DNA of 64,000 bases, from IMG/VR virus record IMGVR_UViG_3300002231_000068; one strand, 5' to 3'. This document shows, in pieces, positions 3,726-49,719 of this stretch (its first letter is position 1; each line of letters starts with the position of its first letter). Below the pieces are notes generated by a model that saw only the letters and a program-made list of their open reading frames with translations, searched no databases and was not told the DNA's origin. The position numbers and the translations under genes were made by a program. The DNA comes from an uncultured virus (IMG/VR IMGVR_UViG_3300002231_000068) (lineage: Duplodnaviria > Heunggongvirae > Uroviricota > Caudoviricetes).

Positions 3726-5735
3726 CTAAAATTCTTCTTCTTCCCATCGTTTCGTGTCTGCTAATTCTTGTTTAACTATCTCACGTGCCTGTCTAACAGT
3801 CATTTGAGCTTTGTTTCTTAATTCATTAACAGTTTTCTTTTTAGTCCAATCAAAATCTATTGCACTCTGTAGTGTAGTTTTTACAATCTCAAAGTTTGCT
3901 GAGTTTATTCCATCTGGAAATTTCTTTGGTTCTAAGAATGCTTGCATATCTGATTTCTTTGATAATGATGTACCTTTACCACTTGATGGTGAGCCTTGAC
4001 CTATACCACCTTTATCAGATGGTCTTTGTTTTTTTGGTTTACCGTCTATTTCTTGCTGGTCTTCTTTTGGAGCTGCTGTACCTCTACCACGACCTTTTGA
4101 ACCACTTGTATTTGGTTTCTTATCGTCTTCGTTATTACTTTCTAACATCATCATTGTAGGGTTTATTATTGGGTTTTTAGATACTTTAAACTCACCAGTA
4201 TGTGTTCTTGTAACTTCGAATCCCATTCCTTGCATAGCTGCCATGTTTTGTATCTCTACTCCTTGTATCTGCAAGTCTCTTAATTTATCGTTTTCTTCAC
4301 CACCCTTTAGTCTTAATTCCCAATCATCCACATCTAGAAGTTTTGCGAATTTTCTTAAGAATGCTTGTTGTAATATATCTTGACCCCATTTAATTGCTCT
4401 ATTTGTAATTGTAACTTGTAGTCCTTCTTGAGACCAGCCTGATGGTAATTCACCGAAGTATAATGGTAGTACACCAAAGACTGCACCAATGATCATTCTA
4501 ATTTCTCTTCTTATTTCTGTAAATTCTAATTCTTTTAATGAACCTGTAAAGTCAATCCATTGTGCCATATTTTTACCACCTTTATCAGATTCTACTAATA
4601 ATGGGTGTATCATGTATGGGTCTTCGGTTGCTTTTTGTTCTAATACATCCCATGATTTTCTGAATGTTTCATAGTTACGAGATGCAATAACTAACATACC
4701 TCTAGGAGGTCTCATCTTATCAAAGTATTTTCTAATATATTCATCCATATGAGATAAGGACATAGCCTTTGACCATATAGAGTAAATTGGAGAATAACCA
4801 TAAAGTAAGGATGGTTTGTATTTGCCTGCTTTCCATATAACTTCACCTTCACCATAAACTACACGTTTTGGTTGAGGAATTCCTATAGAATATACAGAGT
4901 TAACTTCAATGACTGCTTTAAGTGCTTCTGCACCACACCTATCACATTTAGGTACATTTAATCTTCTATCTCGATGTTCAAATCTTGGGCATACAAACAC
5001 TTTATTTCTTTTATCATCATAACCTATTCTACCATCAGAGTCTGCAATGAGTGCGACTTGTGGGGGGTCTATTCTAAGTAACTCTTTTACTTCAGATGCT
5101 TGATGGTCAATCTTACCAGTTCTATCATCTATCTTATAATTTTTTAATATTAAACAGTATGCATTATCTGCAATTTCTAAGTCTCTCTCTAACTGTCGTG
5201 TCAAATCTTCTAATGTTTGTTCGTTTCCATTAATAGGATTTACTAATAAATTCTCTAGTTTCTTTCTATTTTCTGGTATAGGTCTTAACATTTTATCACT
5301 ACCACATGTATCACATTCCATTTCTTCACTCTCGTTTAACTCATGTGCGATAGCTTTCTTAGCATCATTTCTTGGTAGGGATTGTGATTCATTATCTGCA
5401 TTTTGTTCAAATGGTTGTTCGTCTTTGTGGTCACCTTTGATTGGTTTGTATTGAAATTCTTTACCACAATTCTCACATTTAAATTTCCATTTTTCTACAA
5501 CCTCGAAACCATTCTTAAACATCTCTCTGTTTAAAGTTTCAATAGGTATTCTTAATGCATCAATATTATCTGCTAACTCATAAATCATTATGAGAGGAAA
5601 TGGAAAAATTGGTAATTTAGCACCTGTATCGGTACTCATATAGGGTGTTGCTACAGAAGGTCTAGTGGTTCCTTCAGTATATGATTTATTACTAAACCTA
5701 GATGCAAATGCACTTAGAGTATCTTTAAATCCCAT
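3726..5735 (-). CDS. Portal protein with zinc-ribbon insertions
   Basis: Portal-like motifs (RDLEIADNAY, LYGYSPI, YFDKMRPPRGML, IGAVFGVLP); upstream of prohead protease; extra CENC/CDTC and CPRFEH/CDRC motifs. Confidence 0.85.
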   Translation of the reverse strand: MGFKDTLSAFASRFSNKSYTEGTTRPSVATPYMSTDTGAKLPIFPFPLIMIYELADNIDALRIPIETLNREMFKNGFEVVEKWKFKCENCGKEFQYKPIKGDHKDEQPFEQNADNESQSLPRNDAKKAIAHELNESEEMECDTCGSDKMLRPIPENRKKLENLLVNPINGNEQTLEDLTRQLERDLEIADNAYCLILKNYKIDDRTGKIDHQASEVKELLRIDPPQVALIADSDGRIGYDDKRNKVFVCPRFEHRDRRLNVPKCDRCGAEALKAVIEVNSVYSIGIPQPKRVVYGEGEVIWKAGKYKPSLLYGYSPIYSIWSKAMSLSHMDEYIRKYFDKMRPPRGMLVIASRNYETFRKSWDVLEQKATEDPYMIHPLLVESDKGGKNMAQWIDFTGSLKELEFTEIRREIRMIIGAVFGVLPLYFGELPSGWSQEGLQVTITNRAIKWGQDILQQAFLRKFAKLLDVDDWELRLKGGEENDKLRDLQIQGVEIQNMAAMQGMGFEVTRTHTGEFKVSKNPIINPTMMMLESNNEDDKKPNTSGSKGRGRGTAAPKEDQQEIDGKPKKQRPSDKGGIGQGSPSSGKGTSLSKKSDMQAFLEPKKFPDGINSANFEIVKTTLQSAIDFDWTKKKTVNELRNKAQMTVRQAREIVKQELADTKRWEEEEF

Positions 5736-5797
5736 ACTAATAAACACTTAATAACCCCAATATATAAACATTATGTAACGTTTTTGTAACTGATTTG

Positions 5798-8158: not shown

Positions 8159-8370
8159 AGATCCACTTTTTTCCGAGTTTATAAGAGTTACTATTCAACT
8201 TGTATCTAAGTTGTAGCCCACAAAGGTCAAAAAAACCACTTTTTCTCCATGTGCGCCTAGAACGTGGTTCTGGACATCTCTACACTGTGGAATTGTTTTG
8301 GTAGTATATAGGGGTTACTATTGTTAGTGTTATAGTGTTGTTTATATGTCATGTCTGTTGACTATACTTA

Positions 8371-8574
8371 ATGAAAGTTGACAACAGATACTGTAAAGCA
8401 TTCATATCTGACCTAAAGAGTTGCTCTTACTGGAATAACTCTATCGGTTACATGAGTGATGCAGACTACAGAACAACAGTCGAAGCATTGAAAGTGTTAG
8501 AAGAAGTCTATGAGAAGATGCCTGATGAAGTCAAATCATCTGACCATAGAGAAACACCTACATCAATGCCATAA
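8371..8574 (+). CDS. Cassette gene, hypothetical
   Basis: Degenerate motif A 39 nt upstream; CCCCTTTTTT after the stop. Confidence 0.7.
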   Translation: MKVDNRYCKAFISDLKSCSYWNNSIGYMSDADYRTTVEALKVLEEVYEKMPDEVKSSDHRETPTSMP

Positions 8575-8701
8575 CCCCTTTTTTATTGGTCGTTATAGCT
8601 ACGCTTAAGTAGCCCTATCCTTCTGCATCCTATTGGCTAAGTGGGGTATATTAACGTGTTGTCATAGTAGCTCTTATAACCTATAGCAGCTTACATTCTT
8701 T

Positions 8702-8934
8702 ATGGCATATTACAAAGACAATGGCGACCTATTGTCAGACGCTGATAACTGGAATGAAGCACTTGATAACTTCTACCAGATAGCAGACATGGCAGATAAA
8801 GACATCATTGTAATATCATTCAGAGTCTTCGAAGACTTGACAAAGGGGAGATATGCAACACGATGAGCTTATCTCATTTGATTGAGACTTTAGATGCTGT
8901 GATATCTAAATGGTGTGAATGGACTGAGGATTAA
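8702..8934 (+). CDS. Cassette gene, acidic hypothetical (reads to 8866 as given; probably extends to 8934 across indel errors)
   Basis: ATG 38 nt after motif A; MAYYKDNGDLLSDADNWNEALDNFYQ...; terminator follows the TAA at 8934. Confidence 0.55.
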
Positions 8935-9074
8935 CCTCAACCCTTTTTTTATTGGACACATTCGCAACGCTTTAATACCCCTGTTAGGGCTAATCCTAGG
9001 GATTTACTGCTATTGGGGTACTTAAACGTTTAGGCATAGTGCGACTTATTAAGGATGAGAACTCAATATACTTA

Positions 9075-9305
9075 ATGACTTACAAAGACACGCTAGAAGC
9101 AATGGAAAACGTTCCTTTTGGATTCTGTTCTAATTGTGGAAAGTCTCTTAATCTTGAGGCTGAAGCTGATGTAATTGAATGCATGTGCGCTTCATTATTG
9201 CACCCTAACCAAAATTCCAGTAACATGGATGATGTTGAAGCATCATTGGTTAAGGCTCTAGAAGCTCATAAGATGTTAGTTGATGGAATCAAATCAACTG
9301 ACTAA
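9075..9305 (+). CDS. Cassette gene, Cys-containing hypothetical (start revised)
   Basis: ATG 39 nt after motif A at 9036; CSNC and CMC motifs. Confidence 0.7.
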   Translation: MTYKDTLEAMENVPFGFCSNCGKSLNLEAEADVIECMCASLLHPNQNSSNMDDVEASLVKALEAHKMLVDGIKSTD

Positions 9306-9400
9306 TCCTTTTTTATTGGGGGTTTACAACACGCTTATATACCCCTATATTTCCACTGCCCAATAGTAGCCTTTAATAGCAACCTAAACCAAATAATGAT

Positions 9401-9703
9401 ATGTCAAATAAAGTTAGCACCCTAATGGCTCAAGCCTTTGAAAACGGCTATAAGCTATCTATGGGTAACACTTGCGCAACTGGTGACCGTGTTTTATATC
9501 TACATGGAAACGCCATCGCAAAATTTGATGATGGGCAGCTATTCATTAATTTGTGTGGCTGGAATACCCAAACAACCAAAGCCAGACTTAATGCACTTAG
9601 TGGCGTGAGTGTTCATAATGTCAAAGGTGAGGCTTGTTTAAATGGTGTTCCTATGCCTGTTAATGGATGGGTTAAGGTTCCAATGGAATCTCAATTCATC
9701 TAG
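9401..9703 (+). CDS. Cassette gene, conserved phage early-region hypothetical
   Basis: LHGNAIA...GWNTQTTKARLNAL pattern recalled from phage hypothetical proteins; motif A 38 nt upstream. Confidence 0.7.
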   Translation: MSNKVSTLMAQAFENGYKLSMGNTCATGDRVLYLHGNAIAKFDDGQLFINLCGWNTQTTKARLNALSGVSVHNVKGEACLNGVPMPVNGWVKVPMESQFI

Positions 9704-9730
9704 ACCCTTTTTTATTTTGAGTGTATGATA

Positions 9731-9942
9731 ACGCTTATTAACCCCAATTTGCGATACGCTTAATAACCCCTATAACTCATATATTAGATGCTGAATTTGA
9801 CTAAGTCCACAACGTAGCTACGCTTATTAACCCCTACTGTATATGAAGTCTATAGTAACGCTTATTAACCCCTAATATGGGTCAGAAAAAAAAATAAAAA
9901 AAAAATTGTAGTAATTTTTCAGACACAACGCTTATAAACCCC
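9731..9942 (+). repeat. Five direct copies of motif B plus a long A-tract
   Basis: ACGCTTAWWAACCCC at 9731, 9756, 9820, 9858, 9928; A-tract 9886-9905; no ORF. Confidence 0.9.
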
Positions 9943-10040
9943 ACATGGCGCCACGTATCTCAAGGGTTTCTACGAAACAAAATAATACATTATATGACAG
10001 TTATAGTAAGTNTTAATAGCATGTTATGTTTAGTNTACCT

Positions 10041-10343
10041 ATGGTTGATTTAATACTTGATATCAATGAGCCTGTTACTGAGGAAAATCTTGACTCACTA
10101 GTTGAGGCTGAGATTGAAGCTCAGGTTGAGGCAATTGATGAAGAGGAATATGACCAAATGCTCGATGACTGTTACCCTCCATGTGAGATAGGTAATATGA
10201 CTTTTGAGCCTTCTGAGGTTCTTAAGGAATGTGACCCTACTGCATATAGGTGTGGTATGGTTGACTATGCTGATAGCCGTCGAGAGGACTTTGAGGATGA
10301 TGTTAGAGACTCTATTGAGTCTATGATTGAATCCGATGATTAG
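10041..10343 (+). CDS. Cassette gene, extremely acidic protein (DNA-mimic candidate)
   Basis: About 34 Asp/Glu versus 5 Lys/Arg in 100 aa by hand count; ATG 38 nt after motif A. Confidence 0.7.
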   Translation: MVDLILDINEPVTEENLDSLVEAEIEAQVEAIDEEEYDQMLDDCYPPCEIGNMTFEPSEVLKECDPTAYRCGMVDYADSRREDFEDDVRDSIESMIESDD

Positions 10344-10479
10344 GATAAGACCCCTTTTTTTATTGTGCGTAAGCCTAACGTTTAATAACCCCTGTTTTCT
10401 CTCTTTGGGGTGTGGGGTATTTCTCTCTTTTAGTTAAGTTATAGTAAGCCTTAATAACATCTTAGAACCTACCTATTAT

Positions 10480-10752
10480 ATGGATGACAACGTTAGAAAC
10501 ACACTTGAAGAGTTGCAAAAATGCTTTGAAGATGGTATTGAGCAACTACAAGCAGTTTTAGACGATGACCCAGACGCTGAGACCAGTGCATACTATGTAT
10601 TGCATGACTTTAGCGTTAATCACTTTGAGTTCAATGATGCCTTACAAGGCATGTTTGACACATTGGGATTATATTATCATCACAATTTTGGTGATGGTGA
10701 CTATGCTGGACTAAATCGTCGAATCCAAGATTTACCTTATACAACAGGGTAA
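10480..10752 (+). CDS. Cassette gene, acidic hypothetical
   Basis: Motif A at 10441; T-tract after the stop. Confidence 0.7.
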   Translation: MDDNVRNTLEELQKCFEDGIEQLQAVLDDDPDAETSAYYVLHDFSVNHFEFNDALQGMFDTLGLYYHHNFGDGDYAGLNRRIQDLPYTTG

Positions 10753-10849
10753 ACTCTTCACTCCTTTTTTTATTAGCCTCCAAGTATACGCTTATTAACC
10801 CCTATTTCACATAGTAAGACTTAATAAGTCATATATGATATCTTATCTA

Positions 10850-11035
10850 ATGACTGACTGCACTAAATGTTCAAAACAGGCTGAAGATTTTGATGGTTGT
10901 GATGGCTTATGTTTTGATTGCTGGGATGCTGTACAAGCTAAAAAACCAGAATCAAAATGGGCACGTTATGACCGATTAATTATGAATGGTCTTGATTCTG
11001 ATGATGCATTAATTGATGCTGGAATTAAGTTCTAA
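10850..11035 (+). CDS. Cassette gene, Zn-finger hypothetical (start revised)
   Basis: CTKC...CFDC; ATG 39 nt after motif A at 10811. Confidence 0.7.
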   Translation: MTDCTKCSKQAEDFDGCDGLCFDCWDAVQAKKPESKWARYDRLIMNGLDSDDALIDAGIKF

Positions 11036-11122
11036 CCCTTTTTTATTTAGAGTCTGTAATAACGCTTAAGTACCCCTAATTCTCATAGTAAGACTTAATA
11101 ATAAATAAAAATTAATCTTAGT

Positions 11123-11389
11123 ATGGGATATAACATGAGTTACTGCCAGTTTCAAAACACTTCAGGCGCATTGTCTGAGGCAATGAGTAGACTGCAAGAA
11201 TCTGAGCATGGAGACTTTAACATTGGAAAGGAATGTTCTACCGATGAATTAAAGGCTATGAGACATCTATTCGTTGATATGCTCACCGAACACCTACCAA
11301 ATGTTTTCGGTATTGAAATCGATGATGTGGATGAAATTGTCCAAGACATAGATAGACAAATTGATATAGCTATCGAAGTCGAAGACTAA
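11123..11389 (+). CDS. Cassette gene, acidic hypothetical
   Basis: NMSYCQFQNT N-terminal motif recalled from phage hypothetical proteins; motif A at 11085. Confidence 0.7.
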   Translation: MGYNMSYCQFQNTSGALSEAMSRLQESEHGDFNIGKECSTDELKAMRHLFVDMLTEHLPNVFGIEIDDVDEIVQDIDRQIDIAIEVED

Positions 11390-11477
11390 TAACTCTCTTT
11401 TTTTGACCCCAAACAATACGCTTAAGTACCCCTATATCACATAGTAAGACTTAATAACATAAAAAATAATTAATAAT

Positions 11478-11636
11478 ATGTTCGAAGGACTAAAGGCTAT
11501 GTTAAATGCTATCGAAAAGCATCTACCAGATGACCACGTACCTTATACATATGCAGATTTGGAAAAATTTGTTGAAGAATGGGAGGGTAAACCAGAACTC
11601 CCACTCAAATATGTAAATGAGGAAGATTTAACATGA
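11478..11636 (+). CDS. Cassette gene, 52-aa hypothetical
   Basis: ATG 37 nt after motif A; ATGA overlap with the next ORF. Confidence 0.65.
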   Translation: MFEGLKAMLNAIEKHLPDDHVPYTYADLEKFVEEWEGKPELPLKYVNEEDLT

Positions 11637-11968
11637 CCGAAAAAACAGATTGGACAAATGACTTTGAGAACTATATTGAGTCTATGATGGCTGATTCATT
11701 CAATACAACCATTGACTTAGAACAAACAGTTAAAGTTGAATGTCAAGATATTGATGGTCAATATTTTGCAAGCGCTCACATAACTGGTAAAAAAGTTGAT
11801 TCAATGACTTCCAAATATGATGACAAATACAATGCATTAAGTATTGGAGGATATAGAATAATCAATGCCATTGATAGACTAAGTGAGGCTGGTTTTAGTC
11901 TCAATAGTTTAAGTACATTTGACCGTGAAACAGACCCTCTCACTGTGAGAGTATTGTTTGTTTCTTAA
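11633..11968 (+). CDS. Cassette gene, hypothetical
   Basis: Translationally coupled to the upstream ORF; T-tract follows. Confidence 0.7.
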   Translation: MTEKTDWTNDFENYIESMMADSFNTTIDLEQTVKVECQDIDGQYFASAHITGKKVDSMTSKYDDKYNALSIGGYRIINAIDRLSEAGFSLNSLSTFDRETDPLTVRVLFVS

Positions 11969-12064
11969 TCCCTTTTTTTTAACCCACACCAATACGCTTA
12001 AGTACCCCTATTGTCATTGGTGTTATATAGTAAGGTTTAATAAGTTATAAAATATCATCATAAT

Positions 12065-12670
12065 ATGTTAGTAGAAACATTTGAAAACGAAAAAACTTCT
12101 CAAGTAGTAGAAATTCATACAGACGATGATGCTGAGTCACCTAGACAGTGGGATAATCTAGGTACAATGATATGTGCACATAACAGATACACATTAGGTG
12201 ATGATATGGTAGAATCAGCTGAAGAATTGAAACAAATAATTAAAGAAGAAAAACCAGTAATTCAAATGCCATTGTATATGTTAGACCATTCTGGAATATC
12301 TATGTCCACGAATGATTATAATGATATGTGGGATTCTGGATGTGTAGGCGTTATTTATGCAACTAGAGAAAAGATTCTAGACATGATGACTGGCTGGAAT
12401 GGTGAAAAACGAATGCCAATGAAGAAAAGACTTACTAAAAAAATGCTTAAACGAGCAAAAGAAATTCTTAAGTCTGAAGTAAAAACATATTCTCAATATC
12501 TTGAGGGTAATGTGTATGGATATGTTCTATACAATAAATCAAAATGTGACCATGATGAAGAACATCTTGACCATGAAGATTCATGTTTTGGTTTTTACAT
12601 GGATGACAAAGATGATTCATTGGATGTATTCTTAAAAGGATATGGTGGAAATAGAAAAGACTGGGAATAA
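12065..12670 (+). CDS. Cassette gene, conserved phage/mobile-element hypothetical
   Basis: Motifs SPRQWDNLG, LYMLDHSGIS, WDSGCVGVIY, YLEGNVYGY, DSCFGFY. Confidence 0.75.
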   Translation: MLVETFENEKTSQVVEIHTDDDAESPRQWDNLGTMICAHNRYTLGDDMVESAEELKQIIKEEKPVIQMPLYMLDHSGISMSTNDYNDMWDSGCVGVIYATREKILDMMTGWNGEKRMPMKKRLTKKMLKRAKEILKSEVKTYSQYLEGNVYGYVLYNKSKCDHDEEHLDHEDSCFGFYMDDKDDSLDVFLKGYGGNRKDWE

Positions 12671-12765
12671 CCCCTTTTTTTGTTATCAATAATAACGCTT
12701 AAGTACCCCTGTTTTAATTGACATTATATAGTAAGGCTTAAGTGTATGTTAAACAAATAATTGTA

Positions 12766-12969
12766 ATGACTTACAAAATACCACACAAATTAATACAAGG
12801 ACTAGCTAGTAACTTTGGTATAATTGCTAATGTGGATGAAATGACTGGTGAAGTCTGCTGGAATGAAATAAAAAGAATTCATAAAGAATTAAAACCTCAT
12901 TTCAAGGCAGATAACCCTACATACAAAGCATTGACTAACTTAGTGGAGAAATATCCAAATGGCAACTAG
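12766..12969 (+). CDS. Cassette gene, hypothetical (start revised)
   Basis: ATG 38 nt after motif A at 12728. Confidence 0.65.
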   Translation: MTYKIPHKLIQGLASNFGIIANVDEMTGEVCWNEIKRIHKELKPHFKADNPTYKALTNLVEKYPNGN

Positions 12970-13444
12970 AAGTATTATTATCTTTAAAATGGATAATGAT
13001 ATGGTTCAGTTCTACAAACACTGGGATGGATATCCAGAAACTACAGTACCAGAATTAGTTGATTTTCTAGCATTCAATACTTCAAGAAATAGTGACTTTG
13101 AGTATGCATGTGCTAATTTTCCATTTTGGTACAAGTCTGAAAAATACAGAGAACATGCTGATGAAACAGCTGGACTGGGTATTTCACCTAGAGTATGTAG
13201 AACATGGAAAGAAGCCAGAAGTATCTACGGTATTGAATATGTGTATGTTCTTGACTTTGGTACAAATCAAATTCTTGAATTTAACACTCAAATGCAGTGG
13301 AATATAGAAGAATTGAATGGAATTGACTATGATAACACTATGTCAAAAGGTACAGAAATGTTGATTAAAACAGACATTCATGATTTACCTCCATTACCTA
13401 CAGCTGAGTCTATACAACAAATGCGTACAGATACGTGTTTGTAA
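12959..13444 (+). CDS. Cassette gene, HWDGYP-motif phage hypothetical
   Basis: MATRSII...YKHWDGYP...IEYVYV pattern. Confidence 0.75.
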   Translation: MATRSIIIFKMDNDMVQFYKHWDGYPETTVPELVDFLAFNTSRNSDFEYACANFPFWYKSEKYREHADETAGLGISPRVCRTWKEARSIYGIEYVYVLDFGTNQILEFNTQMQWNIEELNGIDYDNTMSKGTEMLIKTDIHDLPPLPTAESIQQMRTDTCL

Positions 13445-13541
13445 TTCTCTTTTTTTTACCTAAAACAATACGCTTAAGTACCCCTATTATTACTGTGGTT
13501 ATATAGTAAGACTTAATAAGAAATAAAATAATATAATATTA

Positions 13542-14075
13542 ATGAGTGGAAACTACTATGGCATTGCTAATGAAAAAGCATTGACTGCTATGATGCAACC
13601 TATGTATAGATATAAAATGGCAAAAAGAGTACCAAAAAAATACGGAGGCTTTGATGCAACAAAAGTTGAGAGTGAAATGCATGATTATTTATTTGAACAT
13701 GCATTAGACTTGATTGAATATGTGTCAAAGAATAAAATAGATAAAATAAAATCTGTTGATAAGAGGGTATCTAAGCTAATGGATTATAGAAAATACTGGG
13801 TAGACATGGCAATATGGTTTAAAAATAAATATAATGTACATGATGAAGACTTGAAAACCATGTGTAAATATTTATCTTTAATTGCTTGGTTCAAGAGTGA
13901 TGACTTTGAAAATAACGATACAACTAGAATTGGTGTTAAGATAGACTTAGATACAAAATTCGGTAGAGAATGTCAATTAAAAGGACAAACTGAATTTTCA
14001 GCAATGAGTTTAGCATTTCACTATATGGCTGGTAAAAAAGATGGTAGTGCTGTTTGGGGTGAAAACGATGAGTGA
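13542..14075 (+). CDS. Cassette gene, hypothetical
   Basis: Motif A at 13503; followed by an overlapping 48-aa Cys-rich ORF (14068-14214) and a T-tract. Confidence 0.7.
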   Translation: MSGNYYGIANEKALTAMMQPMYRYKMAKRVPKKYGGFDATKVESEMHDYLFEHALDLIEYVSKNKIDKIKSVDKRVSKLMDYRKYWVDMAIWFKNKYNVHDEDLKTMCKYLSLIAWFKSDDFENNDTTRIGVKIDLDTKFGRECQLKGQTEFSAMSLAFHYMAGKKDGSAVWGENDE

Positions 14076-14309
14076 CACACTAAGACACTACTGTAATTTT
14101 TGCAAGGTAAAACATTCTAAGTGTACCTGTAAGGAAGGGATAAACAAACGTGCTAATGATAGAGCCTTAAAGCAGGCTAATAGAGTAGCAAGTTTATTGG
14201 GAATCCCTCCTTAATCTCTTTTTTTAACCATACATTAAACGCTTAATAACCCCATTAGCCTCAAGGTTAAGATAGTAAGACTTAATAATAAATAAAATAA
14301 AGAAATATT

Positions 14310-14363
14310 GGAAAAGATGATATTTGAGGAGGCTAAGAGCCTAAAATATCTACTCTTTTCTTT
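14310..14363 (+). ncRNA. Candidate small hairpin RNA 1
   Basis: Begins 38 nt after motif A (14272); GAAAAGA/TCTTTTC, GATATTT/AAATATC and AGGCT/AGCCT stems. Confidence 0.55.
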
Positions 14364-14400
14364 ATAGTAAGACTTATTAGTTAACATAATAAATTAAAAT

Positions 14401-14450
14401 ATGCTATAGGAGACGAGGAAAGAACGTAGATACGTCATTCTCATTTCTTA
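14401..14450 (+). ncRNA. Candidate small hairpin RNA 2 / minigene transcript
   Basis: Begins 37 nt after motif A (14364) with ATG CTA TAG; AGGAG/TTTCT, GAGGA/TTCTC and ACGT/ACGT stems (with G-U pairs). Confidence 0.45.
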
Positions 14451-14487
14451 TAGTAAGACTTAATAATAAATAGAGATGAAATAAGAT

Positions 14488-17757: not shown

Positions 17758-17861
17758 AAAAATTTAAATGGGCAGCTACGCTTAAATACCCCAATAATAC
17801 TATCAATAGTATGCATAACTGACATAGTAAGGCTTAAGTGCAAGTAAAATAAAATAATACT

Positions 17862-19268: not shown

Positions 19269-21017
19269 ATGGCTAGAAACCGTGATTTATTATCTGACAA
19301 AGAATTCTTTCGTAAGACAGCTGATATTGCTGAGCATGTGAGAGAATGTAAGATTGATATATCTTATTGGGATGATGATAATAAAGTCATAGATAAAGAC
19401 CTTAATACAAAAAAAGAAAAAAGTAAAAATTATATTTTAAATGTAGCAACACCAGCCGTTAAAGGCTTAGAGAAGTTTACTGCATTTAATCATGAAATAG
19501 GTCATATTATGATGCAAACACCTATGCCAGAAATGAGAATGTTATTAGATAAATGGACTGAAAAAGATTCAACACGTTTAGCTCATGCAAAATATGATAT
19601 GATGTGGGATATGATGAATGTTCTTGAAGACCAAAGAATAGAATCTATGATGGCTAAGCTTTGGTTAGCAAACTCTAAGAGATTTGAAAAAGCAAGAAGA
19701 AATCTTGGTAAAAAATTCACAAGAGGAATGATACATAATAATCCAACTGATATATTATTAATGCATAGATTTTATAGAAGTGCATTAGTAAATGGAAAAG
19801 AATATAAACATTCAAAAGAGCTTAAACAATCATTAGATGATGTTATAGGAACTGGTAGACTAGGTGTATTGGTTGTAATGAGACGATTAAAACATGTTGT
19901 AGATGATTATTTTAAAGATTTTCAAAAGAAAATGGATAAAAAGGCATTAGAAACTCTTAAACAAGGTCATGGACAATTAACTAAAGGTGAACAAACACAT
20001 GAAAGAACTGCTGGTGATGGTAGAGATACTAGAGAATGCTCAAATAAACCTGAAGATTCAAAAACAGCCGAAGAGGATATAGAAGAAATAGCAGATTCAA
20101 CTATTGAAGAAGCTGAAGAATTACTTAATGAGTGGAAAAATGCTGGTGAAGATGAGGTTGAAGAGATAAGAGATTCTATGTCTGAAGAATCAACAAGTAG
20201 TGAACAACCAGTACCATCTTATGTTTTAAGAGTTAAAAGAGTACCAAGTAATAAAATAGATTTAGACGATGATACAGTTAATGGTTTAAAGAAAGTGTTT
20301 AGAGCAATCACTGAAAAATCTAGACCTGTAATAGGTTATGATGGTGATGAAATAGATATGGAATCATATATTGAGAATAAAATACGTGGTTATGATATGG
20401 GTAGATGTTTTAAAGACTTGAAAAAACATCAAAAAGCATCTGTTCTTATTAGTATCGATGGTTCAGGCTCTATGGAGAATGGTAGAATAGAAATTGCAAG
20501 GCAAATAGTCGCATCATTATTTGCTAGTGTTAAGCATTATCCAAATGTAGAGTTAAAAGCTAATGTTTGGTCATCTAATACTAGGGGTGGATGTAGGCAT
20601 TACTGACATCAATAACCTAGAAGAACTGTAAAAATAATAGTAACACAGAACGATAGTCAATGTATGATGACACCTACACATTTAGCCTTAGATTATTCAG
20701 CAAGGCAACTTAAGAAAATGAAAGGTAAACAGAAACTTATGATATTAATAACTGATGGGCTTCCACAATATCAAAATAATTTCTATACTTTAAAAAGAAC
20801 TCAACTTGCATCGATGAATAAAAAGGCTCTAAATAAAGCAAGAAGGTCTACATCAAACGTCATAATTGTCTCTGTAGGTATGAGTCAATATGGAAGATAC
20901 TTCTTAGAAGAATGTTTTGGAAGAAAGAGAATAATGAATGTGAATTCTATGTATGAAGCTTCTGATGTAGTTGTAAGTAAATTTCAACATTTAGTTAAGT
21001 CAACACTGTCAAGATAG
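19269..21017 (+). CDS. VWA-domain partner of the AAA+ ATPase with N-terminal HExxH domain (split by an indel near 20585)
   Basis: HEIGH, NVLEDQRIE, MIDAS IDGSGS in the first ORF; TP and ITDG in the second ORF (20664-21017). Confidence 0.8.
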
Positions 21018-21097
21018 TATGCATAATTTGCATACTATCGATACTATGCATACTGTATATAGTAAGCCTTTTATACATGCTACGTTTAAATACCCCT

Positions 21098-23979: not shown

Positions 23980-25050
23980 TTAATCTTCTTTGTCTTCAAT
24001 GCCTTTCACCGTAAGAGTAAATTCTGCATCTGCTTGTGGATGTTCAGGTGAATCTACCATACGAGCTATCCTTTTTTTGCCTGATTTCTTGAAATAAATA
24101 CGATAAGTAGCTGCATGACCTACTACATTTCCTCCTATAGGTTTTACAGGGTCTCCAAACATAACCGATGGGTCTGTTTGTACTTGATTTGTGTAAATAA
24201 CTGTTGTTCTAAAATAATATGATATGTTTTTGATATGTGTCATAAGTCTAGCAATTTGATTTTGTCTGTCTGCTAAGGTACCTCTACCTAAGTATTCTTC
24301 TCTAAATTGACCAATAGCACCATCAATTATTACAAGTCTAGGTCTTCTTTCTTCCATCATTGCTGATAATGAATTAATAGTTCCAAGTAATTGCTCTGTG
24401 TTAGGTGTATAATAATATTTGATACGAGACAATGCTTTTTCCATATCCTCTCTGGTTTCTACCATTTCATTGGCTTTCATTATTTCTAATATTCTGGTAG
24501 GTCTGAATGTGTCTTCACAATCAACCCAAACTACATTTTCTCCATCGTTTATAGCTTGAGCTGTTAGTGTATTACAGAATTGTGTTTTACCAGAACCAAA
24601 CTCACCATATACTTCATATGTACATTCTGGTCTTACACCCCCTCCAAATAATTCATCTATTGCTGTACATTTAGTTTCTAAGGTAGGGTAATTTGCCTGA
24701 TATTCCATTAAATCTATTACATCCATATCTGATTTTCTTATTAGATTATTATCTTCTAGTATTTTTTGTGCATTAAAAACCCAGCCATCTGCTTTGGCTT
24801 TTGTGACACCAGTAATCTCAGAGATTTCTCTACCTCCCCTAATACAGATATCAATGATGGATGAAACACCAAAGTCAGTTAATTTTTTGGCTGTTACGGC
24901 TCCTACACCGTCTAGTTGTGATATGCCAAGGTCAAGTACTTGTTGTTCTTCAACTTCAGTTTCTATAACTTTTTCCTCGACCCCAGACATGTTATCTTTA
25001 TCATCCTCTACCTTATAAGGCTTACTACTAGGTTTTTTTGTACGTGCCAT
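23980..25050 (-). CDS. radA: Archaeal recombinase RadA
   Basis: HhH LDGVGAVTAKKL, Walker A GEFGSGKTQ, EDTFRP, YLGRGTLADRQ, PIGGNVVGH, RMVDSP. Confidence 0.95.
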   Translation of the reverse strand: MARTKKPSSKPYKVEDDKDNMSGVEEKVIETEVEEQQVLDLGISQLDGVGAVTAKKLTDFGVSSIIDICIRGGREISEITGVTKAKADGWVFNAQKILEDNNLIRKSDMDVIDLMEYQANYPTLETKCTAIDELFGGGVRPECTYEVYGEFGSGKTQFCNTLTAQAINDGENVVWVDCEDTFRPTRILEIMKANEMVETREDMEKALSRIKYYYTPNTEQLLGTINSLSAMMEERRPRLVIIDGAIGQFREEYLGRGTLADRQNQIARLMTHIKNISYYFRTTVIYTNQVQTDPSVMFGDPVKPIGGNVVGHAATYRIYFKKSGKKRIARMVDSPEHPQADAEFTLTVKGIEDKED

Positions 25051-26999
25051 CTGCCATCAACTTTATTGTGTTTGTGTTCTCCCATCTATGAAATAGTTTG
25101 GTTGCTTCAAGATTTGATAATCCATTTTCTTCTAACTTTTTCATAAACTCTGTCAATTTAACCTTTCCGTTCTTATCTGCGCACTCAGACCATATCTTAT
25201 GATATTTTTGTTCTTTTGACATATTACCAGTGGTAAACAATTTAGATTGATTACCTCCTTGTGATATATCTATGTCAAAATGTGCATACATTGATATTAA
25301 TAAATCACGAACTGCTTTAATATCTTCTACTTCTACCTTACTTTTCAATCTCATTTTTGCATGAGCCATACTAAGTCTTACTAAAGCCTCAAGCTGTCTT
25401 ATGCCAACTGTAAATTGATCGTTAGATGATTGTCTGAGTTTTTCATAGATTCTAACAATTTCATCTCTCACCTCACGTGTAAGTTCTGGTGTAGATTTTT
25501 TTGCTAGATTAACAAATGCAGTTAACTCTCTTGCTGTGAATCTACATGTTTTATCTGGCTCGTTTGATTCAAACCCATCTAAAATATGATTTGCTTTTGC
25601 ATTATCTTCTACTAAGCTTACTTTGTCTTTTATTAACCTAGATTAAATCAAACCTAGATAGTAAAGGACTTGGTATGTTTATGTTATCCATCAATGTTAA
25701 ATTACTATCGTAATTACCATATTTTGGATTTGCAGCTGCAAGAATTGATGCTTTTGCATCTAGTGTTAGTGTAACACCAGCTTTAGCAATAGATACAGTT
25801 TGTTGTTCCATAGCTTCATGCATCGAACTTCTATCATCTTTATTCATCTTATCAAATTCATCGATAAATGCATGTCCGTTATTACATAGTGGTAATACAC
25901 CAGCTTGTGCTATCATTCTACCATCATGTAATTTCACCATACCGATTGTCAAACCAGCACTGGTTGTTCCTTTACCAGAAGTGTATATTGATTTTTGTGT
26001 TACTTCATTACCATATTTTAATAGCTCAGATTTTGCCATTGATGGGTCTCCTACTAGCAGAATATTAATATCTGCACGTTTCTTTGATGGTACACCCCCC
26101 AGTAATTGGAGTAAACATGATAGTTTAATGTCATCATACCCATAAATATGAGGCGCAAAACTGTTAATCAGTTTCTTAATAAAGTCTGTGTCACCTACAT
26201 CTTTTCTTATTGCTATTTCTTCTGTTTCTGATGGTAGTATTTCTTCTACATCATCTACGTCTATAATAGATAAAATGTCTATCAATACCTCATTTTCATC
26301 TTTCTTTGGGTCAATAATACTTCTAAATATACCTATAATATTTTTTCTTTGACCTACAAATGAAGTTCCTACTTGGTCTGCTGTTACTTTACCATAGAAT
26401 GTTATTGGTGAATTTTTAGTTGCGTCTTCTAATGGTTGTTGTAAAATTAATGTTTGTATATCCTCAGTAACTAATCCAGTTTTCTGAACATCCATCACAT
26501 TTCCTTTACATGATGGATTCATACATCTCATAGTAGGGCAATACTCTATCAAAAACCAGATTTTACATGTTCTACAGTAAAACACTCACTACATAAAACA
26601 TCAGCTTCTTTGATAAATGTTTTTGGTTGCGTCGGTTCCTATAATATTACATGTAAAACTAACACTTTCACCCTCCTTTTTAGCGTTGATATCTTCCATA
26701 CGCATACTTTTTTCGGATGCCAGTCTAATTTTCAATCTACTGAAAACTTTTGCTAAGTCTATACCTACATGTTTTACTTGTAATAGTTCAAATATTGCTC
26801 TTCTTGCATATGTGGTAAAATTACCCTCATCATAGAGAAATATATCTACCCATTCTGGATTAGATACATCTATTGTTAAAGTATCACTAGGTCTCAACCT
26901 ATCGATTAAATCTATCCATTCTCTATGTGAAAGAATCTCTTTTATTCTATCAACTTGGGCTGATTCAGTATATTCAGTGGTTTTTGTGTAATCACTCAT
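25028..26999 (-). CDS. mcm: MCM replicative helicase (broken into several ORFs by indels)
   Basis: FAPHIYG, LLVGDPSMAKSE, IDEFDKM, HEAMEQQTVSIAKAG, AAANPKYG, LLSRFDLI, RQLEALVRLS. Confidence 0.92.
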
Positions 27000-27325
27000 C
27001 TTCTCTCACCATACATACGAATCATATTACCCAGTTGATCATGTCTGCTTTGTAACTTATTAAAGTCATTATGAGACATGGTTCTTACTTTTTCCTCCCA
27101 TTTTTTTATAGGTGCATAAAATAGAGGCAAACTGGCTTCTACGTCTTTTTCTGCAAAATCTAGAAGGTTAGAATTATTACCATGACCTTTGACATATTCA
27201 TCAGCAATACTTGCTATGAATAATGACATACTCATATGAGCTGGTCTGATTTTATCTAACTGTTCAAAAATCTTCTGAGCATTGGCACCTACAGATATTG
27301 TAACTGTGCTTCTTTTGAATTGCAT
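26996..27325 (-). CDS. Putative ribbon-helix-helix DNA-binding protein heading the mcm-radA-hjc operon
   Basis: Alternating beta strand STVTISV, then helix, then SMSLFIASIADEY; motif-A promoter 38 nt upstream. Confidence 0.55.
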   Translation of the reverse strand: MQFKRSTVTISVGANAQKIFEQLDKIRPAHMSMSLFIASIADEYVKGHGNNSNLLDFAEKDVEASLPLFYAPIKKWEEKVRTMSHNDFNKLQSRHDQLGNMIRMYGERR

Positions 27326-27404
27326 ATCATATTTATGATAAGCATAGATATAAGGCTTACTATGAGATAACTAACACTTAGCTAACTAACTTAACTACAT
27401 TAAC

Positions 27405-27611
27405 TTAGTTAAGAATTTCTTTTCCAAGTAAGACTTCTTTTTGTAAATCTATAGCAGTTTGTTCTGTTAAAGTTACTTCTTCTGGTAAATCTAAAGATGG
27501 TTGTACCTCTCTCTTTTCAAAACCATTTATAAAACCTTGTACTTTTGTGTGTTCTACTAGTGTCATCATCTCTTCTCCTTTTGAGTTTTTCCATGTAATT
27601 TTGATAAACAT
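27405..27611 (-). CDS. Hypothetical protein
   Basis: Motif-A variant at 27649; start 38 nt downstream. Confidence 0.6.
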   Translation of the reverse strand: MFIKITWKNSKGEEMMTLVEHTKVQGFINGFEKREVQPSLDLPEEVTLTEQTAIDLQKEVLLGKEILN

Positions 27612-40298: not shown

Positions 40299-40664
40299 CT
40301 AATATGAATCCTCTATTACAAAAGCAAATGATTTGGTTTGTTCAACCATGACATTTGATGAATTTTTAATCTCAACTTCACCCTCCCAAATACCAGCGTT
40401 AGCTATTGCTGTGTCTGTGGCACTAAGTTGATATGTGACAATTCCATTTGGTCTATCTGAAAATGTTAATGAGCCATTTATTACTAATGTACCATCTGGT
40501 TTCCAAACTTTCCATGAGCCTTGGTTATATGTAGTTGCATCATTAAGTACCTTAGCACTGCCTGATGAATCTTTAATTGTTAATTGTAAGACAGCTCTTG
40601 AGCCAGATTTGACTCTATATTCCACCGAATTTCCTACCATGTTTGCGCTTGCTGGACTACTCAT
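40299..40664 (-). CDS. BppU-like baseplate/Ig-like virion protein
   Basis: KPDGT, NGIVTYQLSATDTAIANAGIWEGEVEI pattern. Confidence 0.65.
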   Translation of the reverse strand: MSSPASANMVGNSVEYRVKSGSRAVLQLTIKDSSGSAKVLNDATTYNQGSWKVWKPDGTLVINGSLTFSDRPNGIVTYQLSATDTAIANAGIWEGEVEIKNSSNVMVEQTKSFAFVIEDSY

Positions 40665-43600
40665 TATCTTCATCTTTTATATTATTATCTCGTTTATAAA
40701 GATTTCCAGACTTGCTTCTATCATACAATTTTTGTGCTTTCTCTTTAGCCTCGGTTGAAATTGATTTAGCTTTCTCAGCCACTCTTTCAGCTTTACTCTT
40801 AACTTCATCTTTCAATTCCTTACTATTCATATATATCTTAATAGATTTATCTCTCAATGCTGTTACAACATCAGCTGTCTTCTTGTGTGTTCTTAGTGTG
40901 TTTTGTACAACTGATGAACCTATTGAACCAGTAACTAATCCAAATCCAAATCTTACTAATAATAAGAATGATTCTGTTACGTGTACGGTTTCATTTATTA
41001 TTAGTATTAAGTTATTGAATACGTTTCTAAACTCAGTGATGTTTACACCTTCAGTTATTACCTTAGATAATCCTAGTTGTTTTGGTATTCCTTCTATGAT
41101 ATGTACAATAGCAGTGTCTACTCTTACCAAGTCTCTTAGTCTTTGTCTGAACTGTGTTACCGACACACTGTCTGTGACGTGTCTCAATAACTCTCTTACT
41201 CTTACAATAGTTTCTGAGATGTTAACAGTTTCATCTATTACTCTTATTATATCTACTAGTTTACCTTGGAATTGAGATACGTTAACAATCTCATTGATAA
41301 TTCTACTCAACTCTCTGGTTCTTATTACAGACTCAGTGATGTTAACTGCATCTAATGCAACCGTTCTTGCTATGCCTTGAACCTTGGCAAATCCTTCTGT
41401 TATTGTTACGATGTCTGCTATTGATCTAAACTTTCCTATTGCGAACTTTGTGGTTTCAGTTATACCTACAGTCTCATTAACTATAATTCTGATTAACTCT
41501 CTTACTCTACCTCTGAAGTCATCTATTATTACAGAGTCTGTGATATGTCTGATTATATCTCTTACTCTATTAACTATATCAGATACGTTTACATTATCAG
41601 ATAATATTCTACTTAACTCTCTGGTTCTTAAGACAGATTCAGTTATTGATACAACCTCACCTAATATCTTGGATATTGCATTATGTCTAACTAATCCTTC
41701 AGATATTGCAACAGATTCATTAACTATTATTCTGATTAAGTCTCTTAATCTACCTTGGAATTGAGATATTGTTACAGACTCTGATATGCTTCTTATGACA
41801 TCCCTTGCTCTGTATATACCCTCCCACATGATTACAGATTCTGTTATTATTCCAAATCTGTTTCTGATAGTATCTAAAGTATCGTTAGTATTGATAGTAT
41901 CTGATAGTATGCGTGATATCTCTCTGAATCTGTTAAATGATTCTGTGATACTTATTGTTGCATCTGTTATTGTTCTTGAAATTATTCTTGCCTTTGTTGC
42001 ACTCTCTAATACATTAACAGTTTCAGTTACAACTATTCTAATTAAGTCTCTTACTCTACCTCTAAAGTCTTCTACAGTAACCGTATCAGATATGATTCTC
42101 ATTAAGTCTCTAACTCTATCTACAACTTCAGATGTACTTACAGTGTCAGTTATCACTCTAGACATCTCTCTTATTCTTACCAGTGATTCTGTAACACCTA
42201 ATGATTCAGTTACAGTTCTTACCCTACCGAATATTCTTACCAGTGATTCAGATATATCTATAGTTTCAGTTATTATCTTAACAAGTTCTGCTACCTTACC
42301 TTGGAACTGTGTTACATTAACAACCTCATTGATAATTCTGTTAATTATTCTTGTTCTTAATACACTCTCAGTTATTATGACAGACTCACCGATAGTTCTT
42401 TGTAAGAAGTGTAGAATCTTTGTAACCTCATTAATATTAACTGTCTCGTTAATTATTCTCATTAAGTCTCTAACTCTTACTATTGCTTCTGTTATACCTA
42501 CAGATTCACTTATAATCTTGACCAGTTCAGCTACCTTGCCTTGGAATTGAGATACGTTAACAATCTCATTTATGATTCTGTTAAGTACTCTGGTTCTTAA
42601 TACATTCTCAGATATTGCAACAGACTCGTTAATCATTCTCATGATTACATATTGTTTAACGGCTGTTTCGGTTATCTCAACAATGTCTGCTACTGCTTTA
42701 CTTATTGTCTTAAAGTGTGGAACTATGTCAGAGACGTTGACAATTTCATTAATTATTCTCATTAATGTTCTTGTTCTTACTAATGATTCAGTAACTCCTA
42801 CAGTTTCAGTTACAACCATTCTGATTAATTCTCTGGCTCTACCTCTGAAGTCTTCTATTGTGATTGATTCTGATATTGCTTGGAACCTATCTCTGAATAA
42901 TACCATTACATCTGTTAGTCCTATTGATTCACTAATCATTCTGATTAATTCTCTTGATCTACCTACAATCTCTGTTGTATTGACATTATCAGATATTGTT
43001 CTCATTAATGTTCTTACTCTTACTAATGATTCAGTTACTCCTACATTATCAGCAACACTTCTGAATTTCTCAGTTAATCTTGTTATTGATTCAGAGATTA
43101 ATGTACTCTCAGATATCATTCTTATTAATCCTCTAACCCTTACTAGTGATTCAGATACATTAACAGAGTCTGCTATTGTTCTTGCAATTACTCTGAACCT
43201 ACCTTGGAATATATTAATTGTTACAGAGTCACTGATAGCCCTTGCTAATTCTCTACTTCTGTTATTAATTTCTGATGTACTTACACTATCTGCAATTACT
43301 CTTGAGATTACTCTTACTTTATTAACTGCTTCAGTGATGTTTGTAGCATCTACAACAGTTCTCATTAATGTTCTAACTCTAACTATTGGTTCACTTACAG
43401 AGATGTTTTCAGTAACACTTCTGAACTTTTCTGTGAATCTTGTTATTACATCACTTACACTTATAGGTTCACTTAACATTCTAATTAAGTCTCTTACTCT
43501 GTCATTTGTTTCTGTAATACCCACCGTTTCTGTTACAACTATTCTTATTAGATCTCTTACCCTACCTCTGAAGTCTTCTATAGATAAGGAGTCACTTAAT

Positions 43601-49600: not shown

Positions 49601-49719
49601 GCTTGTTGAAATAAATCTGAATCAAAAATAGACCCCTGAAATGTTTTACCAAGTGTCTGATTTATAGAGAAAAGATCATTATCGAATAGGTTAGTTTGAA
49701 AAACCTTTAGGAAAGCCAT
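40657..49719 (-). CDS. Giant (~3000 aa) repetitive virion/fibre protein, split by three apparent indels (~48585, ~45372, ~44170)
   Basis: Continuous FQxNIFQ pentapeptide blocks and ~19-aa (I/V)xE(S/T)VxIxE repeats across all consecutive ORFs. Confidence 0.7.

Follow-up and report, generated by a model that had tools for sequence, protein, structure and literature searches.

A shuffled array of small genes in a predicted tailed virus of marine ammonia-oxidizing archaea

The record IMGVR_UViG_3300002231_000068 of IMG/VR, an uncultured virus of the Caudoviricetes, was analyzed as one stretch of 64,000 nucleotides (hereafter the window). From position 8,332 onward it carries a tandem array of twelve small units, each with a promoter (containing an element termed motif A), one or two small open reading frames (ORFs), a T-tract, and a conserved 15-bp site (motif B). 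The locus raises the question of whether these units are exchangeable cassettes, as an earlier reading of the letters alone had proposed (the original prediction), or only a fixed set of co-regulated early genes, and what motif B is for. Comparison with related contigs shows that the units are shuffled: they are gained, lost and reordered among relatives, as had been proposed, and also inverted, with the rest of the genome collinear.

The units are as follows (c1 to c12b denote the ORFs). The reference for comparison is the complete relative G002 (65.5 kb), which aligns end-to-end with the window at about 75-90% nucleotide identity; the nearest database record (G001) does not span the array region.

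8332..8615, + strand: unit 1; degenerate motif A; c1 8371-8574; T-tract 8579; B 8601
8643..8981, + strand: unit 2; reverse B 8643-8657; promoter; c2 8702-8866; 24-codon ORF 8863-8937; T-tract 8944; B 8967
9015..9345, + strand: unit 3; reverse B 9015-9029; promoter; c3 9075-9305 (CxxC); T-tract 9309; B 9331
9362..9745, + strand: unit 4; promoter; c4 9401-9703 (Kyano_Gp96 family, phrog_554); T-tract 9708; B 9731
9731..9942, + strand: B cluster; five direct copies at 9731, 9756, 9820, 9858 and 9928; A-tract at about 9886-9905
10003..10392, + strand: unit 5; A 10003; c5 10041-10343 (very acidic, phrog_9294); T-tract 10355; B 10378
10441..10802, + strand: unit 6; A 10441; c6 10480-10752; T-tract 10765; B 10788; junction relative to G002 at B
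10811..11076, + strand: unit 7; A 10811; c7 10850-11035 (two CxxC); T-tract 11039; B 11062
11085..11432, + strand: unit 8; A 11085; c8 11123-11389; T-tract 11398; B 11418
11441..12008, + strand: unit 9; A 11441; c9a 11478-11636; c9b 11633-11968; T-tract 11973; B 11994
12027..12709, + strand: unit 10; A 12027; c10 12065-12670 (phrog_6186); T-tract 12675; B 12695
12728..13484, + strand: unit 11; A 12728; c11a 12766-12969; c11b 12959-13444 (phrog_1987); T-tract 13450; B 13470; junction relative to G002 at B
13503..14253, + strand: unit 12; A 13503; c12a 13542-14075; c12b 14068-14214; T-tract 14219; B 14239

The predicted order of promoter, one or two small ORFs, T-tract and motif B was found in 12/12 units. 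The position predicted for motif A (37-39 nt upstream of the ATG) holds for units 5-12 and fails for units 1-4, in which the motif is degenerate. The T-tract was correctly placed right after the stop codon, 3-12 nt downstream of which it begins, and motif B follows it in every unit, at a distance tighter than the 12-20 nt claimed: the start of B lies 20-23 nt from the start and 10-13 nt from the end of the tract. With up to one mismatch allowed, motif B is found 18 times in 64 kb (100 shuffles give a mean of 0.00) and motif A 12 times (0.06 by chance); a looser B pattern yields 21 copies in the window, 18 of them inside the array. The earlier reading had not included the reverse B copies at 8643 and 9015, the five-copy cluster, the B copies outside the array, the 24-codon ORF closing unit 2, or the A-type promoters found throughout the early and replication genes. 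The twelve spacers share a mean identity of 63% over 45 nt, with exact runs of up to 25 nt; their folding (z from -2.3 to +1.9 relative to shuffles) reveals no common hairpin upstream of the T-tracts.

Judged from its sequence, motif A is a genome-wide early/middle promoter, composed of a TFB-recognition element (BRE) and a TATA box, and is not specific to the array. The BRE has a set position relative to the TATA box; passages of PMC7289017 support that it is adjacent to the TATA box and A-rich, and no more than that. Across the arrays compared, the TATA box lies 29-30 nt upstream of the ATG in 103 of the 114 genes for which it could be placed (170 tried), and the units are therefore leaderless. 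Each unit thus reads as an early/middle BRE-TATA promoter followed by a predicted U-tract terminator, and the archaeal signals that had been proposed are borne out by these promoters and by a thaumarchaeal RadA. Two promoter classes are apparent in the genome, a TAG-BRE-TATA type on early and replication genes and a TAG-less type on structural genes. The bases upstream of the BRE vary by lineage across the whole genome, which suggests a co-evolving factor and accounts for the failure of the exact B-plus-A pattern to match any viral contig. A further short motif resembling a decayed A element occurs near some B copies (window 9785-9800; relatives L004, L006, L009 and L010).

For the comparison of gene order, 26 contigs were used: the window and 25 others picked for clustered B copies and protein homology, with three duplicates dropped; most single matches of the B pattern scans were unrelated and hence unused. 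The window order is c1 c2 c3 c4 c5 c6 c7 c8 c9a-c9b c10 c11 c12, and that of G002 is X, c2 tail, c3 c4 c5 c6 c8 c7 c9a-Y c11 c10-c9b c12, i.e. units 7/8 and units 10/11 are swapped, and the position of c1 is taken by an unrelated 103-aa ORF. Between these two genomes, 5 of 14 adjacencies touching the array are broken and 0 of 62 elsewhere (p=1e-4). In two other relatives, reciprocal matches of array ORFs number 2/16 (G003) and 0/16 (G005), vs. 49/86 and 42/86, respectively, for ORFs outside the array; against G005, 2 of 41 adjacencies are broken outside the array as well. Among the 26 contigs, whole units are inserted, deleted or replaced (e.g. L141, in which c2 is missing and a new 122-aa unit is present), and both orientations are seen for 5 of 31 shared families, among them f24, which in L154 stands flipped with an inverted B pair around it. 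The c8 unit is ahead of c4 in L006 and inverted in L004; c9b comes after c10 in G002 and makes up the first unit on its own in L004, L005, L009, L010 and L031, and the c9b/c10 permutation is compatible with a circle or a tandem duplication. In a tree of the portal protein, comprising the window and those 28 of 80 portal loci with at least about 2.4 kb of upstream sequence, the array is present in 13 of 15 members of the clade of at least 81% identity, the remaining two contigs stopping about 1 kb into it. It is also present in L041 (74%) and L064 (66%), and absent from this position in several distant contigs. A fixed set of co-regulated early genes would fit the genome-wide occurrence of motif A and the order held by near-identical strains; however, order, content and orientation vary among relatives, and against G002 only here. 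This explanation can hardly be true, and is refuted unless the compared contigs are chimeric.

Many of the junctions lie at the spacers, as had been expected of exchangeable units. Where only the upstream gene is common to two loci (n=52), identity left/right of B is 0.65/0.39, and where only the downstream gene is common (n=50) it is 0.46/0.57, against a background (n=1932) of 0.36/0.37; the 12 nt left of B, as read from these alignments, travel with the upstream gene, and the right flank with the downstream gene. Among close pairs, which are not independent, 26 with a common upstream gene break in B (13), in or near the T-tract (9) or to the right (1), with 3 ambiguous, and 20 with a common downstream gene break in B (3), in the T-tract (6) or to the right (7), with 4 ambiguous. 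Junctions for which both parents were seen lie in B (f23 of G003, f9-f24 of L103, c4 of L144) or in the T-tract (c4 and f18 of L135), and cross over on either side of the B core or in the tract. By sequence this is the pattern of microhomology recombination and not that of one cut site. As the original prediction had stated, no integrase is in view: no recombinase or integrase family was found among the 93 ORFs scanned, a set that excludes the long repeat proteins, some other ORFs and less than 1 kb of DNA found only in G002. Integrase and attC not having been found, the data favor recombination at shared spacers over an integron-type mechanism. Of the catalysts originally named, RadA and a Cas4-like gene are present in the window, and the ORF called Hjc has no family match.

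23980..25050, - strand: viral RadA (Rad51, E=2e-54); candidate recombination catalyst and host marker

The TATA cores of motif B are those of the ORF promoters; the base three positions upstream is invariably an A, and a C-run lies downstream. At 170 of 176 gene ends, B and the end of a T-tract are no more than 20 nt apart, the distance being 12.0 +/- 1.8 nt in forward (n=141) and 13.8 +/- 1.7 nt in reverse orientation (n=29), and the 12 nt separating tract and B are unrelated in sequence among copies. Between convergent genes, a single B or an inverted pair lies 12-16 nt from both T-tracts, such that one B serves two terminators; in G005 every B copy is reversed and points back at the terminator. 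Inverted pairs occur in 2/12 window spacers, and their spacing among relatives is 18-64 nt. Clusters resembling that at 9731-9942 are found in G002, G003, G004, L103, L041, L010, L154 and G005; such tandem clusters comprise 3-6 direct copies with a period of about 29 nt, usually with a long A-tract, in most lineages, and several contigs end there. Three copies in the window are outside the array:

5744..5758, + strand: B-like copy, head-to-head inside the promoter region of the portal gene
17778..17792, + strand: B copy upstream of the A promoter of the AAA (CobS-like) ATPase gene; after a T-tract in G002
21082..21096, + strand: B copy between the TATA box of the A promoter and the ATG; in G002 the promoter's own TATA is a B-like copy

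At the first of these sites (window 5735-5770), a B-like element of opposite direction coincides in part with the portal promoter; in G002 it is an A/B hybrid, and it is possibly an early/late switch.

Motif B could be a second promoter right after the terminator, the spacer then being a terminator with tandem promoters of two time classes, an archaeal equivalent of the T4-type spacers described below, with the inverted copies as by-products or antisense promoters. The shared TATA cores, the invariant A and a resemblance to structural-gene promoters speak for this, as does the common B-to-A spacing of 29, which equals the TATA-to-start distance; furthermore, a TATA with C-run lies 29-30 nt upstream of the ATG at the 27611 gene (window and G003), at the homologue of the 21098 gene in G002, and at a distant portal gene. 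On the other hand, no initiator is seen at +29/+30 (pyrimidine-purine 0.15-0.17), the melting region is less AT-rich (0.61 vs 0.79), all B copies of G005 point back at the terminator, and some copies elsewhere are turned towards one another at 18-31 nt or directed into the ends of convergent genes. That B is a promoter used generally by the host was rejected, its core being unenriched in five host genomes (19 vs 53 control matches). From these sequence features a roadblock is favored over a promoter, which we consider somewhat unlikely.

A site-specific recombinase, as in integrons or shufflons, would account for a B at each unit border, for the several junctions in B and for the inverted pairs that flank inversions. 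We regard this as very improbable: no such family was found among the 93 ORFs scanned, crossovers are spread over both sides of the B core, T-tracts and a gene overlap, the cores of the partners are not the same, inverted pairs are freely spaced (18-64 nt), and the spacers fold no better than shuffles. An iteron for replication or packaging, in which cluster and A-tract would be the origin or pac site and recombination would have scattered the single copies, is improbable too. It has in its favor the cluster of direct copies with its period and A-tract in most lineages, and an MCM encoded by the virus (an initiator was not detected); it leaves unexplained why B keeps a fixed distance from terminators whichever way it faces, elsewhere the long A-tracts next to B are reverse-strand terminators, and a more widely conserved element at the left border of the array is an equally good candidate for an origin or pac site:

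8243..8300, no strand assigned: non-coding element conserved in array-bearing and array-less relatives
14272..14465, + strand: right border of the array; A promoters at 14272, 14364 and 14450, followed by a collinear operon from 14488

The left-border element lies within the 119-bp end overlap of G002, and contig L002 ends at the same place; from its sequence it is a candidate packaging, terminus or origin site. As an origin-type box of the host it was rejected, no clear cluster being found in five host genomes.

The explanation that we favor as a whole, and consider probable, is that the array is a hyperplastic early region of the virus in which each unit is, judged from its sequence, an independent transcription unit. 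Shuffling would very probably be driven by homologous recombination between the short sequences shared by the spacers (T-tract, B and A), direct copies leading to deletion and insertion, and inverted B copies to inversion, with the viral RadA as a plausible catalyst. For motif B itself, we put at about even the chance that it is a protein-bound site with a primarily transcriptional role, as a roadblock or insulator. In yeast, RNA polymerase II (Pol II) comes to a halt 12 bp ahead of Reb1, with 12 bp between its leading edge and the active site, and the TBP-containing TFIIIB acts as a roadblock (passages of PMC5052057); the archaeal polymerase, according to review passages, is Pol II-like and terminates at hairpin-free U-tracts. 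These precedents, together with the geometry of B, are why the roadblock is favored. Carrying a TATA core, B would most simply be bound by TBP/TFB or a viral factor, and, lying one polymerase leading-edge length after the U-tract, it would hold RNA polymerase stalled on the tract from either side. It would also insulate neighboring units while standing in phase with the next promoter; with such insulation any order or orientation would be viable, and the array would tolerate shuffling. Forward B copies indeed keep phase, in steps of about 10 nt, with the promoter that follows and with tandem copies, the distances to the next TATA clustering at 27-31, 36-40, 47-50, 56-62 and 69-70 nt (n=38, R=0.64, period 10), a statistic computed on related sequences and thus inflated in significance. 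The fullest version, in which B is a non-productive TATA site that with host TBP/TFB or a viral general regulatory factor stalls the polymerase, primes the next promoter and serves as a crossover handle, is rather tentative.

Several observations weigh against this explanation, beginning with the inflated phasing statistic. Inverted B pairs are unphased and reverse copies weakly phased; the fixed distance from T-tract to B possibly reflects in part the copying of one ancestral module; and for a few ORFs, TATA with C-run appears to act as the promoter. Breakpoints are often off B (13/26 and 3/20 in B, among the non-independent pairs), c9b moved via a stop/start gene overlap and not via a spacer, and one sampled strain holds the window order from c8 onward. 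No single-unit circle or spacer-to-spacer back-joint was found in four sequencing runs over units 5-12, three of which were available as contigs only and the fourth, as raw reads, contributed almost nothing; the search is weak, since circles of the T4-type cassettes occur at about 1 per 10^5 virions. One contig of an RNA run (10055-10418) extends 26 nt past B. Finally, no database or fold search gave a function for any cargo protein (Pfam, PHROGs, NCBIfam, PDB, Atlas, and a fold search for c10), and no binder of B was identified, the only, and weak, lead to one being the following:

26996..27325, - strand: gene for a possible ribbon-helix-helix protein, upstream of MCM; weak candidate for binding B or A (Atlas lead 0.86; CopG E=0.63; low-confidence model without fold match)

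Short palindrome-like repeats upstream of this gene (27340-27410) and of the 21098 gene (20980-21060) are conserved in relatives and are candidate operators. Two further candidates from the sequencing runs were discarded: one joint skipping units 6-7, with a 30-nt side and 28 foreign bases, was too weak to count, and a long terminal repeat of the SPO1/T5 type covering units 5-12 was rejected as depth did not double relative to the right flank (a weak test based on contig depths). The RNA run gave contigs from six units, with DNA in the library possible, and those listed are confined to the ORFs of one unit in 6/6 cases, which speaks for the favored explanation.

The cargo was described in the original prediction as mostly acidic or Zn-finger proteins. 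The former is supported (pI, the isoelectric point, is below 5.1 in 11/15 vs 14/47 other small ORFs, p=0.005); the latter applies to a minority, a CxxC motif being present in 3/15 only. The 26 contigs yield about 60 cargo clusters, of which a small number are probably false ORFs and almost none has a family assignment; c4 is the most widespread, and c5, c7, c8, c10 and c11b match unnamed PHROGs. The structure model of c10 (predicted local distance difference test score, pLDDT, of 94) has significant matches only to phage proteins without functional name, and its best match in a fold search (Z 6.0, root-mean-square deviation 3.4 over 61 residues) gives no function. No cargo protein matched a known anti-defense family; whether the cargo comprises accessories for host takeover or counter-defense appears to us evenly balanced. 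In lineages other than that of the window, a cargo family of roughly 200 aa (L004:1988-2608) carries HExxH, possibly a zinc peptidase, without match to Pfam, NCBIfam or PHROG. In some units of L010, L015, L031 and L154, promoter and T-tract are separated by 100-400 nt in which no convincing ORF is seen, and these units are possibly RNA cassettes; Rfam gave no credible match over the arrays of seven relatives.

The window holds a near-whole genome of a tailed virus, with portal, protease, terminase, tail tube and tape measure among the predicted genes, as well as MCM, RadA, RNase H, a Cas4-like nuclease and an AAA ATPase adjoining a vWA gene; tRNA and Rfam families gave no match. The MCM (25028-26999) and vWA (19269-21017) genes are in pieces, probably through assembly indels, and the long structural genes at 40657-49719 are repeat-rich, the periods being of 20 and of 5 residues. 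Among 80 RadA loci that were retained, the best two (72% and 68%) are on contigs of about 44 kb in marine genome bins, and the remaining 78 are thaumarchaeal, mostly Nitrosopumilaceae; the sequencing runs richest in the array are marine. Marthaviruses are marine tailed viruses with radA and a CobS-like AAA ATPase (passages of 10.1101/2020.04.02.019802), and the window has all of radA, a CobS-like ATPase (a name resting on an AAA_5 match next to the vWA gene), thaumarchaeal affinity and marine origin. Through this likeness in gene content and affinity, the sequence fits a Marthavirus-like tailed virus of Nitrosopumilaceae, i.e. of marine ammonia-oxidizing archaea. The Marthavirus passages of that paper do not mention such an array, and none was found described for thaumarchaeal viruses in the literature searched, which did not cover the original Marthavirus and HGTV-1 (see below) papers and supplements.

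Ammonia-oxidizing archaea rank with the most abundant microbes of the sea, and what is known of their tailed viruses comes almost entirely from metagenomes; the array shows where and how such viruses turn over accessory genes, and its about 60 cargo clusters provide a shortlist for screens for host takeover and counter-defense. Archaeal termination is called a process that is among the least well understood in archaeal gene expression in the review passages, and with the array it could be tested cheaply whether termination at U-tracts is helped by a protein bound to the DNA. If the favored explanation is true, transcription in an archaeal system would be terminated by a roadblock, a case that a literature search for it did not yield, and the same element would allow units to change place or orientation with their neighbors left undisturbed.

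Integron arrays consist of tandem, exchangeable small genes with a repeated border (the attC hairpin) and an integrase, the genes being mostly promoterless and in one orientation. The present array shares the tandem exchangeable genes and the repeated border, and the analogy that had been drawn does not hold beyond this: the units have promoters of their own and are found in either orientation, an integrase was not found in the scan, breakpoints are not at one base, and both attC core motifs are found together in 1/12 spacers, without a significant DNA hairpin. The second analogy originally drawn, to the promoter-early stem-loop (PeSL) cassettes of T4-type phages, is the apt one. PeSL cassettes carry small orphan genes separated by terminator/promoter spacers, recombination between which leads to indels and exchanges, and mini-circles are proven for them (passages of PMC2839356 and PMC4122927). 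Common to both systems are small orphan genes gathered in a hyperplastic region, with the genome around it collinear, a composite of terminator and early promoter between the units (T-tract, B and BRE-TATA in 12/12, at the sequence level), and indels or exchanges with crossovers inside the spacers, with one exception at a gene overlap. In contrast, the promoter here is an archaeal leaderless BRE-TATA promoter and not Sigma70-like, hairpin-free U-tracts stand in place of the stem-loop terminator, an extra element B is present, and orientation is mixed with inversions, a word that does not occur in the two PeSL papers. The array thus works like PeSL shuffling and fails membership on promoter type and stem-loop. 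The yeast Reb1/TFIIIB roadblock is alike in that B lies about 12 nt past the T-tract end, taken as the stop position; it is eukaryotic and measured, whereas here it would follow from spacing. The published archaeal precedent, as a suggestion, is the halovirus HGTV-1, in which a repeated TATA-containing motif with an inverted repeat precedes many ORFs and shuffling was suggested (passages of PMC3950731). Both are archaeal tailed viruses with a TATA-like box before many ORFs of one region; in the present virus, inverted B pairs are found in 2/12 spacers, and shuffling is seen by comparison. The HGTV-1 suggestion is thereby turned into comparative evidence in archaeal viruses, with inversions added, and new are the host group, the reordering and inversion shown by comparison, the hairpin-free spacers, and the roadblock-like geometry of motif B.

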